DNA of 64,000 nucleotides from Anaerolineae bacterium (GCA_027002405.1 JALWZT010000109.1:4624-68623), one strand, 5' to 3'; positions 50,752 to 55,001 are shown, numbered from the stretch's first letter. Numbers and translations are program-made. The notes: generated by a model from the sequence alone, not told the origin.

Positions 50752-51159
50752 TCACCGTGATCGGTTCAATACCATACTCGGCCAACCGCTGCGCCAATTC
50801 CAAATCCCGAGTGATATCCTCATCGCGGCTAACAACGTATTGAGCCCCTCCGATAACAGCGGTTTCCAACACTCGTCATCAGGATCACGACACAAACGCA
50901 GGTCGCCCGAGACTGGGACCAATCGGGCAACTTCGGCAACGTTTCGTACAAAGGCCTCGGCATCCGCTGGGGTCGTACGCCGAATTTTCATGATGCGAGG
51001 CCGACACAGCACCTCCAACAGCTCTTCGAGCATAGGAGGAGACATCACAACAGTCAATTGGCCTGCTTTCCCTGCTTCTACGAGACGATCCGGGAAGCCC
51101 CGAGGATTCAAAAATGCTGACACCCAAATATTCGTATCAACCACTGCGACGACGGCCAC
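50752..51159 (-). CDS. PIN-domain toxin (TIGR00305-like), copy A, apparent -1 frameshift after ~codon 96; authentic C-terminus AVIGGAQYVVSRDEDITRDLELAQRLAEYGIEPITVSRLLELLALRHK is in another frame
   Basis: VVDTNIWVSA...LCRDPDDE then frame change; identical to copy B. Confidence 0.65.
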   Translation of the reverse strand: MAVVAVVDTNIWVSAFLNPRGFPDRLVEAGKAGQLTVVMSPPMLEELLEVLCRPRIMKIRRTTPADAEAFVRNVAEVARLVPVSGDLRLCRDPDDECWKPLLSEGLNTLLAAMRISLGIWNWRSGWPSMVLNRSR

Positions 51160-51454
51160 GACGCTGCTCTCTTACTTCCTCACGGGCCATGGTGATTTCG
51201 GACTCGATTTGGGCAGGGGTGTAAGAAGTTGGACGCTCGTGAATTTTGCTCAAGAGTTCATCGAGCTGGCGCCATGCCATCTGCTGACGTTCCTTTTCAA
51301 GGGTTGCCAGAGACTGTAGCCGGCGATATTCCTCGATAGAAATCAATACAGCCAGAGGCTCGCCGTCACGTTCTACCACGAGAGGCGTTTGCAAGTCTGT
51401 CTTGGCTACGTCATAATCAGCGGCAGTTTTTGGAATTGTCTTGGATTTGGTCAT
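51137..51454 (-). CDS. Phd/YefM-like antitoxin partner of PIN toxin, copy A
   Basis: TPLVVERDGEPLAVLISIEEYRRLQ; 23-bp overlap with toxin gene. Confidence 0.7.
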   Translation of the reverse strand: MTKSKTIPKTAADYDVAKTDLQTPLVVERDGEPLAVLISIEEYRRLQSLATLEKERQQMAWRQLDELLSKIHERPTSYTPAQIESEITMAREEVREQRRGRRRSG

Positions 51455-51529
51455 CGTACAACCTCCTGGCTTTCAGTGTACCAAGTTCGCCCGTTCTTGT
51501 CATCTCTGGGAGCCACGAATCTCGCGACC

Positions 51530-51800
51530 ACGAATCTTGGACCAGCCAACCTGCTTCTCCTTGCAAAAAACCGGGAAAGGAGACAAGGTGAGGGGGCGAT
51601 AAGGTGACAAGGAGACAAGGTGAGGGGGTGAGGGGGTGACTTCTCCTCATGACCATCTCACAAAATTCGCATGGCGGCCTCAAACGCCATCTGATACACA
51701 TCCAAATCACGATGCGTCTTGATCGCCCGGCTCACACTCCTTGTCTCCTTGTCTGCTTGTCTCCTTGTCTCAGAATCGCCTTGATTGGACGTCATGTGAA
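51530..51800. repeat. ~260-bp palindromic element (ACCAGCCAACCTGCTTCTCCTTGCAAAAAACCGGGAAAGG...GGTGACAAGGAGACAAGGTGAGGGGGTGAGGGGG ... CTCACACTCCTTGTCTCCTTGTCTGCTTGTCTCCTTGTCTC), copy 1
   Basis: copies at 52690-52950 and partial 55380-55520; ORF-track peptides MIWMCIRWRLRPPCEFC... are translations of this element. Confidence 0.7.
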
Positions 51801-51901
51801 AGTGGCCGCTGAGTTGGTGATGGGCCGCTGATGGACGCTGATTGTTTATCTATGTCCAATTCACGGTGCAAAACTTCACTCATTACCTGGCCCCTCTTGT
51901 C

Positions 51902-52399
51902 TCACTCGCCCACGACTTCAAGCGCTTTCTGATACAGAGCTTCTGCTATCCAGAATCCACCATCTTCTCGCAAGGCATCTAATTCCTGTCGCAAGGATTC
52001 AATGCGCCCATCCAACCTGGCCCGCATCAAAATCCCCACGACGCCGGTCTTCGGCAGATCGTAAAGCGTGGCGATCCGTCTGCCATCCGCTTCATCAATC
52101 AACAATAGATCTGCTTCCATCTCTACTGCCAGCGCGATGGCTTCCGCCTCGCCATTATCGAGCTCCCTTTTCAATATCCTCATGAGAGGCTCATTTGCAA
52201 CGTTAACGACTTGAATCCAGCCTGTGTTTTGGCCAATTCGCACTTCCTCAGCCCCAGCGCGACCTTTTCCCTCGATCACGACTTCTTGCCATACTGCCGG
52301 AGGAATGATAATGGCGCCAAACATCTCCCGGAGTAACGCCAATCGCCCGATGCGCGCCAGGTGTATCAACGTGGATGAATCACTGACGACCTTGGGCAT
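51902..52399 (-). CDS. DUF3368-domain protein (PIN-like putative toxin)
   Basis: SSTLIHLARIGRLALLREMFGAIIIPPAV...GEAEAIALAVEMEADLLLIDEADGRRIA. Confidence 0.75.
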   Translation of the reverse strand: MPKVVSDSSTLIHLARIGRLALLREMFGAIIIPPAVWQEVVIEGKGRAGAEEVRIGQNTGWIQVVNVANEPLMRILKRELDNGEAEAIALAVEMEADLLLIDEADGRRIATLYDLPKTGVVGILMRARLDGRIESLRQELDALREDGGFWIAEALYQKALEVVGE

Positions 52400-52640
52400 A
52401 TCGAATATCGTCTCTCAAATCCGACTCAGTATAATGGCGAACAACCTTGCGCTGGCCTAACAATTCTTCGAACTCCCAACGCGTCATTTGGGCCAAAATA
52501 CGAGCTTTCCCCAAAGAAAGCACACCACGCTGATACAACGCCACTGCCAGTTCTCGACGAAACTCTTTTTCTTGTTCATCACGAGGCAGTTTAGCTGCCT
52601 CAACAACTTCCGGCGGTATGTCCAGCGTCAATGTTTTCAT
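52380..52640 (-). CDS. UPF0175 family protein (putative antitoxin partner of DUF3368)
   Basis: LAVALYQRGVLSLGKARILAQMTRWEFEELL; overlaps DUF3368 gene. Confidence 0.75.
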   Translation of the reverse strand: MKTLTLDIPPEVVEAAKLPRDEQEKEFRRELAVALYQRGVLSLGKARILAQMTRWEFEELLGQRKVVRHYTESDLRDDIRYAQGRQ

Positions 52641-52689
52641 GAGTGAACTCCGATAAACGATTCAGAATAAGTTACGTTTTGGGCATTAT

Positions 52690-52950
52690 ACCACTCTTGA
52701 ACCAGCCAACCTGCTTCTCCTTGCAAAAAACCGGGAAAGGTGACAAGGTGAGGGGGCGATAAGGTGACAAGGAGACAAGGTGAGGGGGTGAGGGGGCAAC
52801 TTCCCATCATGACCATGTCACAAAATTCGCATGGCGGCCTCAAACGCCATCTGATACACATCCAAATCACGATGCGTCTTGATCGCCCGGCTCACACTCC
52901 CTGTCTCCTTGTTTGCTTGTCTCCTTGTCTCAGAATCGCCGCGCCCGCGA
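52690..52950. repeat. ~260-bp palindromic element, copy 2; its insertion replaces the body of a DUF3368 gene
   Basis: near-identical to 51530-51800. Confidence 0.7.
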
Positions 52951-53303: not shown

Positions 53304-53489
53304 ATCTCTATTGTCTCGTGAATCCAAGGATTATCATCATAATCCCATTCTAACACGCCAGTTATTGGGGGTCAAGCGCATCGCGAGAGGCGTGCTCCGG
53401 CCGCTGGGTGTTGAAACTGCTGGCACGACGGATGATGCCGTGGACCTCATAACCTTTCGACAGCAGTCCGACGGCAGGCAGGCCTGCGC

Positions 53490-53620
53490 CGATACCGAGG
53501 AAAATGGGAACGCAGATTTGCGCAGATGCTTCGCAGCGCTGATTTGCGCAGATTGATTTTTTATTTTGATTTTATCTGCGTGAATCTGCCTCTATCAGTG
53601 TTCATCTGCGTCCTCTATTT
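53490..53620. repeat. GCAGAT-family tandem repeat (CGCAGATTTGCGCAGATGCTTCGCAGCGCTGATTTGCGCAGATTGATTTT...)
   Basis: related blocks at ~27995, ~48090, ~58270. Confidence 0.6.
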
Positions 53621-54034
53621 TCAAAGCAGTTGGATGAACGCCTGCTTCAACGCTTCGAAATCTTCCAAGTTCTCGTGCAACACTTGATATACAATGCCCC
53701 TATCGACGTTAAGATAGTCGTGCACCAGGATATTGCGAAAGCCGATCATGCGAGTCCAGGTCGCTCGCAGATTCTCATCGATATACCCCGCTTCATGGAG
53801 CAACCGGGGCACGTCGCTATACCAATCCACAACGCCCAGATTCAAATCCGCAATCACATGATTTCCGATATCTGTCAACGTCTCGATAGCCAATTGTAAA
53901 AAGCGTTCGGCGCTGCCATAACGTTCTGGACTGGCCAAAAACTCATCCCGGGAATAATGTTGTAATTGTCGCAGAATCTGAAGATATTCGTCCAGCTTTT
54001 GCAGCCGACGCAACAACACTTCACGCCTGACCAT
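53621..54034 (-). CDS. hepT: HepT (DUF86) toxin, HEPN superfamily
   Basis: Rx4HxY motif RNILVHDY; downstream of mntA with 14-bp overlap. Confidence 0.85.
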   Translation of the reverse strand: MVRREVLLRRLQKLDEYLQILRQLQHYSRDEFLASPERYGSAERFLQLAIETLTDIGNHVIADLNLGVVDWYSDVPRLLHEAGYIDENLRATWTRMIGFRNILVHDYLNVDRGIVYQVLHENLEDFEALKQAFIQLL

Positions 54035-54458
54035 GAAGCGTCCTCCGCTTGTAAGCCCGCCGTTGTGTGGTCAGATAGGGGAGGAAATCGAAATACTGGC
54101 GGATAACGAGGGAATAATAAGCGCCCTTATCGAAATCGGGCGTGTGGTAGATAAGTCTATTATGTCGCACAGCTTCATATTTCAGGAGGATGTTCGCCGT
54201 GTTGAGCAACACCACGTCGACGTTATCGAAGCCCGCAACTGCAAGAGCGGCTAGAAGATCGAGCTTTGAGAAGGATTCCGTTCCAGGCCGAAGGACAATC
54301 CCCAGATCGAGATCACTCTCGCCATGAGATCGTCCTGACGCCATCGAACCAAACATATAGACGGCCTGAATATCGGGATAGGCGGCAAAAACGCGGGCCA
54401 GTTTTTCCTGTGCGGTGATATCGAATGGGAGAGAATGAGATGCTGCTCGGGTAATCAT
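54021..54458 (-). CDS. mntA: MntA minimal nucleotidyltransferase antitoxin
   Basis: GSMASGRSHGESDLDLGIVL (GSx10DxD). Confidence 0.85.
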   Translation of the reverse strand: MITRAASHSLPFDITAQEKLARVFAAYPDIQAVYMFGSMASGRSHGESDLDLGIVLRPGTESFSKLDLLAALAVAGFDNVDVVLLNTANILLKYEAVRHNRLIYHTPDFDKGAYYSLVIRQYFDFLPYLTTQRRAYKRRTLHGQA

Positions 54459-54504
54459 AATTTCATTTCACTGAAAACCATTCATCTCGCGACCGCTCGA
54501 CGCG

Positions 54505-54570
54505 TGCAATTCGTGTCATTTGTGAAAATTCGTAGTTGTGAAATTCGTGGTTGCATCATTTGTGGCGTAA
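54505..54570. promoter_or_regulatory. three direct repeats ACGAATTTCACAA / ACGAATTTTCACAAA / ACGAATTGCACG (minus-strand sense) 40-100 bp upstream of mntA: candidate operator/promoter of hepT-mntA; second copy at ~50666-50723
   Basis: read in sequence. Confidence 0.4.
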
Positions 54571-54593
54571 AGCCAACAACTCCAGCAAACGAC

Positions 54594-55001
54594 TCACCGT
54601 GATCGGTTCAATACCATACTCGGCCAACCGCTGCGCCAATTCCAAATCCCGAGTGATATCCTCATCGCGGCTAACAACGTATTGAGCCCCTCCGATAACA
54701 GCGGTTTCCAACACTCGTCATCAGGATCACGACACAAACGCAGGTCGCCCGAGACTGGGACCAATCGGGCAACTTCGGCAACGTTTCGTACAAAGGCCTC
54801 GGCATCCGCTGGGGTCGTACGCCGAATTTTCATGATGCGAGGCCGACACAGCACCTCCAACAGCTCTTCGAGCATAGGAGGAGACATCACAACAGTCAAT
54901 TGGCCTGCTTTCCCTGCTTCTACGAGACGATCCGGGAAGCCCCGAGGATTCAAAAATGCTGACACCCAAATATTCGTATCAACCACTGCGACGACGGCCA
55001 C
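54594..55001 (-). CDS. PIN-domain toxin, copy B (identical to copy A including frameshift)
   Basis: identical 135-aa ORF. Confidence 0.65.
   Translation of the reverse strand: MAVVAVVDTNIWVSAFLNPRGFPDRLVEAGKAGQLTVVMSPPMLEELLEVLCRPRIMKIRRTTPADAEAFVRNVAEVARLVPVSGDLRLCRDPDDECWKPLLSEGLNTLLAAMRISLGIWNWRSGWPSMVLNRSR

Follow-up and report, generated by a model that had tools for sequence, protein, structure and literature searches.

A Phd-PIN toxin-antitoxin cassette with the same four-nucleotide deletion in both copies of its toxin gene

How did two PIN toxin genes lying 3.8 kb apart come to carry the same broken reading frame, and could a working toxin still be made from either of them? The question is raised by a stretch of 64,000 nucleotides (nt) from an Anaerolineae bacterium (GCA_027002405.1, JALWZT010000109.1:4624-68623), here called the window, whose positions are counted from its first letter. 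On its minus strand there are two cassettes, each consisting of a Phd/YefM-type antitoxin gene followed by a gene for a VapC-like toxin of the PIN_3 family. An initial annotation had described the two toxin open reading frames (ORFs), 135 amino acids (aa) long, as identical and frameshifted, and the comparison of their translations agrees that 50752-51159(-) = 54594-55001(-). We consider it highly likely that the locus is a case of ordinary toxin-first decay, in which the toxin gene of a Phd-PIN cassette lost 4 nt and the dead allele came to stand in two places.

The cassettes lie in a direct repeat of ~1.05 kb with an offset of 3842 (50530-~51575 versus 54372-~55417), and each repeat contains a promoter-like site, the Phd antitoxin gene, the frameshifted PIN gene and a 3' flank. 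The only internal difference between the repeats is 51437T/55279C, to which a few edge positions are added; 836 bp around the lesion are identical between the copies, as are the 447 nt running from the start codon to the stop codon of the other frame. The copy-1 PIN ORF is also identical to a database protein (P0012). The features of the two copies, all on the minus strand, are as follows:

50530..51575, minus strand: direct repeat, copy 1, ~1.05 kb (offset-3842 identity map, repeat finder)
54372..55417, minus strand: direct repeat, copy 2 (offset-3842 identity map, repeat finder)
50752..51159, minus strand: PIN_3 (VapC-like) toxin ORF, copy 1 (partial profile matches to PIN_3 and TIGR00305)
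54594..55001, minus strand: PIN_3 toxin ORF, copy 2, equal to copy 1 (ORF translation, tblastn)
50870..50875, minus strand: deletion junction, copy 1, GACGA/GTGTTGG, between 50873 and 50872 (DNA alignments with L006, L088 and L089)
between 54715 and 54714, minus strand: deletion junction, copy 2 (identical to copy 1)
50714..50872, minus strand: abandoned C-terminal PIN coding sequence, copy 1, 52 codons, with S112-R113-D114-E-D116 inside (tblastn, homologue alignment)
54556..54714, minus strand: abandoned C-terminal PIN coding sequence, copy 2 (tblastn)
51137..51454, minus strand: Phd/YefM-type antitoxin, copy 1, 105 aa, intact (PF02604, TIGR01552)
54979..55296, minus strand: Phd/YefM-type antitoxin, copy 2, same protein, one synonymous difference at 55279 (ORF translation, tblastn)
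51475..51503, minus strand: promoter-like site upstream of Phd copy 1, ATGACA-17-TACACT with TG (consensus scan only, 9/12 matches)

The deletion and the part of the toxin that it removes

A search of a large protein collection of 5.8 billion clusters found ~300 homologues of the PIN protein. The closest are single ORFs of 144-158 aa, all reading CRDPDDDVVLETA, and they have ...LCRDPDDDVVLETA... where the window has ...LCRDPDDECWKP...; the nearest intact proteins, P0001 and P0122, are 149 aa long and about 93-94% identical to the window, and P0121, also intact, has 145 aa and is about 92% identical. The DNA of three intact relatives (L006, L088 and L089) aligns to that of the window gap-free except at one place, where the ancestral GAT GAC GAT GTT GTG TTG GAA has become GAT GAC GA- --- -GT GTT GGA A. 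Precisely, the lesion is a deletion of 4 nt, GATGACGA[TGTT]GTGTTGGAA, in codons 96-97, which costs one residue and turns the nearly invariant D96 into E. The insertion of a single G, as put forward in the initial annotation, does restore the frame, but it does not retrace the history, since the ancestor had four more bases; a one-base deletion is ruled out by the same alignments. As to the site itself, described there as free of homopolymers, no homopolymer is present at the junction, but the deletion falls within a tandem pentamer, GA-TGTTG-TGTTG-GAA. The possibility that homologues generally share the shorter C-terminus, also named there, is false: the closest ones carry the full C-terminus.

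The profile matches locate the same break. On the 135-aa ORF, PF13470 (PIN_3) scores 46.7 bits against a cut-off of 27 and covers profile positions 2-95 of 115, whereas on the frame-restored PIN it covers positions 2-114 of 115 with 63.2 bits; the coverage of TIGR00305 (45.6 bits against a cut-off of 29.15, positions 3-91 of 115) likewise stops at the lesion and extends in the frame-restored version. By tblastn, residues 98-149 of the repaired protein are found in the second frame at 50717-50872 and 54559-54714, with 100% identity. The disruption of the PIN gene is hence borne out by a match that resumes in the other frame, and this frame encodes, as had been claimed, a PIN C-terminus, VLETAVIGGAQYVVSRDEDITRDLE...RHK, to which the C-terminal ends of all close homologues can be aligned. 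A complete PIN domain in a single reading frame is held by these homologues and not by the window ORF, whose product consists of 95 authentic residues, then E96, then a 39-aa out-of-frame tail.

We considered which residues are lost in an alignment of 40 sequences. Upstream of the lesion the invariant positions are D8, T9, S14, N18, E46, R53-P54-R55, R91-D92-P93 and D95, and beyond it they are T101, A107, S112, R113, D114, D116, R119, D120 and T136; everything from T101 onward is out of frame in the window. The four conserved acidic residues of the PIN active site are therefore no longer all present: D8, E46 and D92/D95 are kept and D114/D116 lie beyond the lesion. The placing of the fourth acidic residue in the lost part agrees with the initial annotation, and S112, R113, D114, D116, R119 and D120, around it, are all invariant.

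The AlphaFold model of the intact relative P0001 (mean predicted local distance difference test score, pLDDT, 89.4) has the alternating strand-helix layout of PIN proteins. In this model the lesion coincides with the beginning of helix 93-104, and the part removed comprises two strands of the core (109-111 and 133-135), the rest of helix 93-104 and three further helices. The best Foldseek matches of the model in the PDB are PIN/VapC proteins, namely AF0591 (1o4w), Rickettsia VapC2 (3zvk) and Pyrococcus VapC4 (5h4g), followed by several Mycobacterium tuberculosis VapCs and the Shigella VapC (the PDB entries listed include 5x3t and 5ecw); searching the PDB by sequence found nothing significant for this PIN subfamily, and the fold is assigned from the predicted structure, as is, with its PDB matches, the placing of D114/D116 within it. 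Loss of nuclease activity is very likely because the fourth acidic residue and two core strands are gone, so that, judging from the residues and the model, the window product is very probably no longer a nuclease and not toxic. As it stands, the window PIN gene is a pseudogene of the PIN_3/TIGR00305 family, its disabling lesion being the 4-nt deletion relative to the intact orthologues of L006, L088 and L089.

When the window is compared with its intact relatives, the ratio of non-synonymous to synonymous divergence (dN/dS) is low on either side of the lesion (0.06-0.30), and the lesion is therefore recent relative to those divergences; the ratio does not address constraint after the lesion. 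The synonymous divergence (dS) between the window and the P0001/P0122 alleles is itself uneven, ~0.85 just downstream of the lesion and ~0.15-0.17 upstream (about fivefold). The stretch of high dS covers PIN codons ~100-120 (window 50800-50865) in the comparison with L006/L088, and there P0121 (L089) matches the window. From these sequences, the PIN alleles appear to be recombination mosaics.

In a scan of one genome per species, which did not contain the species of the window, the PIN family was found almost only in Chloroflexota, mostly in Anaerolineae; the host of the window is probably an uncultured member of that phylum. An independent frameshift occurs in a PIN_3 gene of another species (L053 3205-3626, from the Anaerolineales metagenome-assembled genome SAW132, JBQTJD010000670.1), with the shift just before the CRDPDDD motif, the part before it being 45% and the part after it 70% identical to the query. 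This second gene indicates that decay by frameshift recurs in the PIN_3 family.

Recurrence, recoding and the order of events

Six further contigs, drawn from five or more other samples, carry the same deletion. Five of them encode the exact 135-aa product: L001 (GCA_027013725.1), L002 (a Logan assembly of SRR14510437), L003 (ERZ23491132), L004 (GCA_027032035.1) and L005 (ERZ23491057); the sixth, L087 (GCA_027028885.1), encodes a one-residue variant, P0123, with A24 for D24. The variable sites are 51089 (D24/A24), 50824 and 50776, and they define four haplotypes, all deleted. Variants of the downstream flank of copy 1 are found on L004 and L005 and the upstream spacer of the copy-1 type on L003 and L001; collinearity with copy 2, and with the genes upstream of it, is shown by L001, L002 and L087. 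At the junction the deleted allele has the signature GACGAGTGTTGG, whereas an intact one would have GACGATGTTGTGTTGG or TGTTGTGTTG. A pattern with 0-4 extra bases at the junction had zero matches, deleted or intact, among metagenome contigs of the Joint Genome Institute (JGI), and is uninformative as to an intact allele. Among the listed protein matches, and among the members of the 90% clusters to which the nearest intact proteins belong, no intact protein of the window haplotype was found.

Because the same lesion recurs on six other contigs and in four haplotypes, sequencing error is rejected, and with it the proposal that an error in the reads hides an intact PIN ORF. A wider version of this objection, in which sequencing or assembly produced the deletion artificially, or a single deleted copy is printed twice from a collapsed consensus, draws on the resemblance of the source to a metagenome assembly, in which an exact repeat of 836 bp is hard to phase with short reads, and on the size of contigs L003-L005, which are about as long as the repeat, as collapsed repeats are. 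We consider it very unlikely all the same, as the deletion is shared by these contigs, samples and haplotypes, flank variants of both the copy-1 and the copy-2 type occur among the deleted contigs, no intact allele of the haplotype exists in these assemblies or in the protein database (where the nearest intact proteins are ~92-94% identical), and no homopolymer lies at the deletion site. The initial annotation had also left room for a toxin that needs frameshifting, that is, for a programmed -1 shift that yields the full PIN protein or for a separate 52-residue C-terminus, started from the GTG at 50872, that complements the N-terminal fragment. In favour of such recoding, the old frame is open from the junction to the native stop in both copies and a GTG stands exactly at the junction in this frame. 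The signals that it would require are, however, absent. No slippery heptamer of the X XXY YYZ type occurs anywhere in the PIN ORF, and the only relaxed candidates, with A/T runs, precede the junction by 27-243 nt, in a region where stop codons block the target frame. The 121 nt around and after the junction fold with a minimum free energy of -34.6 kcal/mol against a mean of -36.1 kcal/mol for shuffled sequences (z = 0.42), which is no stable structure; the Rfam search of the whole window matched no family; and no sequence resembling a Shine-Dalgarno site precedes the junction GTG, whereas the Phd ATG is preceded by AGGAGG. Nor is the frameshift conserved among homologues: it is confined to one near-identical lineage, and no listed homologue needs a shift except one independently broken gene. 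The old frame itself is altered in two alleles: in L004 a G-to-C change at 50824 puts H in place of the invariant D114, giving SRHED, and in L087 its final codons have been exchanged for those of a different allele type. On the negative scans for heptamers and homopolymers, RNA folding, Shine-Dalgarno search and Rfam search, programmed frameshift and restart were both discarded, and we find recoding of either form scarcely credible. The PIN gene contains three single-nucleotide polymorphisms (SNPs), few in number and all non-synonymous in the original frame, D114H and A24D among them. The two that lie beyond the lesion each change a residue in the old frame, which is therefore probably no longer protected, two SNPs being too few for a statistical test.

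The haplotypes bear also on the order of events. The ancestral states, as in intact relatives, are A24 and H130; among the deleted alleles, L087 has A24/H130, L001 and L003 have D24/H130, and both window copies have D24/Y130. Both window copies thus carry the most derived haplotype, which makes the deletion older than the last ancestor that they have in common. The earlier statement that the toxin was inactivated before the segment duplicated holds for the age of the deletion relative to that ancestor; that the ancestor corresponds to the duplication is one of two readings, which fit the observations equally well. In the other, the segment would have duplicated with the toxin still alive, and the deletion would have arisen in one copy and spread to the other by gene conversion. 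The density of differences between the copies is what such a course leads one to expect, being 1/958 in the Phd-PIN core and 5/239 in the adjoining MntA/HepT remnant (Fisher p = 0.0015); L001, with a copy-1-type spacer upstream of Phd and otherwise collinear with copy 2, would reflect patchy exchange, and mosaic alleles are seen in L004, with an L006-like 5' part, and in L087, with a P0002-like 3' end. However, the remnant of copy 1 is a pseudogene with deletions of its own, so that the two stretches are maybe not comparable, and the mosaic pattern could partly be assembly chimerism in repeats. Gene conversion also needs one event more, and we favour deletion followed by duplication on grounds of parsimony, conversion being possible and yet, in our judgement, the less probable course.

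The antitoxin genes have to be considered together with the fate of the truncated product. The Phd gene overlaps the start of the PIN gene by 23 nt on the same strand, in both copies and in the loci of the relatives examined, and this small upstream overlapping antitoxin on the same strand gives the type II module layout. Its family assignment is borderline in Pfam, with 29.7 bits for PF02604 (cut-off 29.8), and clears the threshold for TIGR01552, with 23.3 bits (cut-off 20.8), and the protein is similar in sequence and length (105-106 aa) to the antitoxins that stand beside intact toxins in L006, L088 and L090. The sequence of the promoter-like site is repeated identically at 55317-55345 for copy 2, inside the repeat, and may serve as a promoter. 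The 64-kb window contains no intact PIN_3 paralogue and no further Phd paralogue for which the antitoxins could be spare. Decay is expected to begin with the toxin, since loss of the antitoxin first is lethal, and for the same reason an antitoxin is kept after its toxin is lost. Most likely the antitoxin is still intact because there has been too little time for its decay, and Phd may act as an autorepressor or as an antidote to related PIN toxins. One could suppose instead that the truncated PIN (the N-terminus with the 39-aa tail) is kept as a non-toxic partner, either a co-repressor with Phd or a decoy that binds the antitoxin; duplication would then increase the dosage of a module that is 'antidote-only' and protects from newly arriving related PIN toxins. 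The 135-aa ORF is indeed intact in every allele seen, and neither of the SNPs in the tail changes a residue in the new frame. Still, two SNPs give p ~0.05, uncorrected; A24D in the window is non-conservative, close homologues and the family consensus having Ala; the fragment, lacking two core strands in the model, is unlikely to fold alone; and the 39-aa tail has no homologues beyond this lineage. We regard a selected role of the truncated protein as very unlikely indeed.

According to the toxin-first decay that we prefer, the locus would have started from a type II cassette in which a Phd/YefM-type antitoxin gene was followed by the gene of a PIN_3 VapC-like ribonuclease toxin. The toxin would have been knocked out by the deletion of TGTT inside the tandem pentamer, at codons 96-97, and the dead allele would have come to stand at sites 3.8 kb from one another, either because the cassette was duplicated or through conversion between older copies, with the antitoxin genes and the promoter-like region remaining intact. 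Of this, the lesion and its ancestral state, its occurrence in several samples and haplotypes, the loss of invariant residues and the lack of recoding signals are observed; the loss of toxicity, how and in what order the copies arose, and any remaining role of the antitoxin are deduced. Some points weigh against this account. The loss of activity is deduced from the sequence and a model, and the relaxed constraint on the old frame is read from only two downstream SNPs and is not statistically established. The assemblies look short-read metagenomic, so that the 836-bp identity could partly be repeat collapse. The antitoxin genes are wholly undamaged, which neutral decay alone does not predict, and the chance that both post-lesion SNPs are synonymous in the new frame is ~0.05, uncorrected, which gives slight room for a selected product.

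The surrounding toxin-antitoxin island

The minus strand between 57049 and 49549, read in that direction, contains a string of small toxin-antitoxin cassettes, bounded by an intact gene of the GDP-mannose dehydratase family (57175-58218) and a glycosyltransferase gene (48331-49458). In order, it consists of a HicB-like gene; a HicA remnant with a 59-aa GDP-mannose dehydratase fragment; UPF0175 and DUF3368-PIN; Phd-PIN copy 2; an intact MntA-HepT pair; UPF0175 and a truncated DUF3368; UPF0175 and DUF3368; Phd-PIN copy 1; an MntA-HepT remnant with an internal deletion and a truncation; a HicB-like fragment; and an AbiEii-like nucleotidyltransferase. The features around the two copies are:

53621..54458, minus strand: intact type VII pair downstream of copy 2, HepT 53621-54034 and MntA 54021-54458 (Pfam, NCBIfam)
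50232..50616, minus strand: decayed HepT/MntA remnant downstream of copy 1 (ORF translations, identity map)
51902-52640, minus strand: UPF0175 and DUF3368-PIN pair between the copies (Pfam scans, ORF list)
52892-53327, minus strand: second pair between the copies, with truncated DUF3368 gene (Pfam scans, ORF list)
55663-56398, minus strand: upstream UPF0175 and DUF3368 pair (Pfam scans)
56400-56768, minus strand: HicA remnant fused to GDP-mannose dehydratase fragment (Pfam scans)
56768-57049, minus strand: HicB-like UPF0150 gene (Pfam scans)

The intact type VII pair matches HepT-like with 114.8 bits and Polbeta with 67.4 bits in Pfam, and HepT_toxin with 130.6 bits and MntA_antitoxin with 77.5 bits in NCBIfam. 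In the remnant, ~270-285 nt are missing from within MntA, and HepT is without its C-terminal part; 50300-50538 corresponds to 53858-54095 at 97.9%, and the match resumes from 50527 onward at 54368. The truncated HepT is joined to the HicB-like fragment (50181-50272), which is 91% identical to 56946-57037. The gene calls of the upstream part of the island (55663-57049) are also found on L001, L002 and L087. There, in the 122-aa ORF at 56400-56768, the first ~47 residues give a weak HicA match (PF07927, 21.4 bits, below the cut-off of 27), and the 59-aa N-terminal fragment of GDP-mannose dehydratase is encoded at 56432-56611, beside its intact paralogue at 57175-58218. This fragment and the UPF0175-DUF3368 pair are conserved in the relative L090 (13502-14420).

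The locus of L090, which has the intact orthologue P0124, contains an island of >16 kb that shares with the window the dehydratase fragment, UPF0175-DUF3368 and HicAB, while the other cassettes differ. Its positions 1-16071 (JGI 3300038380) hold some 40 small genes in an unusually dense toxin-antitoxin array, with the families PemK, PIN_3, RelB-like, MNT/HepT, HicAB, DUF6883/DUF4926, ParE, DUF2283, PDDEXK_3 and UPF0175/DUF3368. On L087, the dead PIN gene is followed by a UDP-glucose dehydrogenase gene that is not present in the window, and at 2400-2470 a 34-nt stretch at the end of its PIN gene (CTGGAGTTGTTGGCTTTGGGAGCGTAAAAACCAC) is tandemly duplicated.

Repeats other than the cassette itself were also observed. 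A spacer element of ~250 nt occurs at 51530-51780, upstream of Phd copy 1, and at 52690-52940, by the truncated DUF3368 gene, with 96% identity; it is partial at 55372-55489, upstream of Phd copy 2, and a 93% copy lies 3' of the dead PIN gene in L087 (2501-2785). The element contains runs of 8-nt units (AAGGTGAC / AAGGAGAC / GGGGTGAG) and may be a site of cassette recombination. A 45-aa ORF within it had been likened to the start of a 'four-helix-bundle' protein; this was dropped, as no Pfam or NCBIfam match was obtained. In addition, a 41-nt intergenic repeat (GAACGCAGATTTGCGCAGATGCTTCGCAGCGCTGATTTGCG, 88% between copies) is found at 48102-48142 and 58291-58331, the two outer margins of the island region, and at 53508-53548, in the middle of it. 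The decay of the PIN genes is accompanied, in their neighbourhood, by that of the MntA/HepT remnant, the truncated DUF3368, the HicA fusion and the dehydratase fragment. On its gene content, the island appears to be a hot spot where cassettes are gained, lost, duplicated and left to decay within a polysaccharide-biosynthesis locus.

Meaning and comparison with known systems

Both PIN ORFs should be annotated as pseudogenes with a 4-nt deletion, and both Phd genes as intact antitoxins without a working partner. Nothing at this locus lies outside known biology. It is a clean natural example of toxin-first decay, which matters little beyond correct annotation, and it illustrates how dead cassettes can be copied and reshuffled within the toxin-antitoxin island of an uncultured lineage. 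It is also relevant when 'functional' toxin-antitoxin systems are counted in metagenome-assembled genomes, because an automatic gene caller labels the 135-aa ORF as a PIN_3 protein.

With the toxins of the PIN_3/TIGR00305 family, the window gene shares 95 N-terminal residues that exceed the curated cut-offs and a position directly downstream of, and overlapping, an antitoxin gene; it differs from them in that its ORF is without the last fifth of the domain profile, the fourth acidic residue included. VapC systems pair with VapB antitoxins of the AbrB or MazE type, whereas the window PIN pairs with one of the Phd/YefM type. Programmed -1 frameshifting, as in dnaX and in IS3-family transposases, has in common with the window that two overlapping frames encode one recognisable protein, but here there is no heptamer, no stimulatory structure and no conserved shift, and the ancestor was a single ORF.

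The closest parallels are decayed systems. In ccdO157, work by Mine et al. in 2009 reportedly found the toxin lost by a small mutation and the antitoxin intact. Like ccdO157 of E. coli and the hok-sok copies of E. coli K-12, the window has lost its toxin by a small mutation and kept its antitoxin; it differs from them in having the dead allele twice in one locus, in belonging to a different toxin family and in being known here from sequence. The decay of chromosomal toxin-antitoxin systems is an established pattern, and, as with the dead PIN allele here, broken alleles of such systems are spread through natural populations (PMC2654758). The anti-addiction idea holds that an antitoxin without a working toxin may neutralise related incoming toxins (PMC2654758). 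Like anti-addiction modules and orphan antitoxins, the window has an intact, probably expressed antitoxin without a working toxin, which could in principle neutralise related incoming PIN toxins; no intact PIN_3 paralogue lies in the window.

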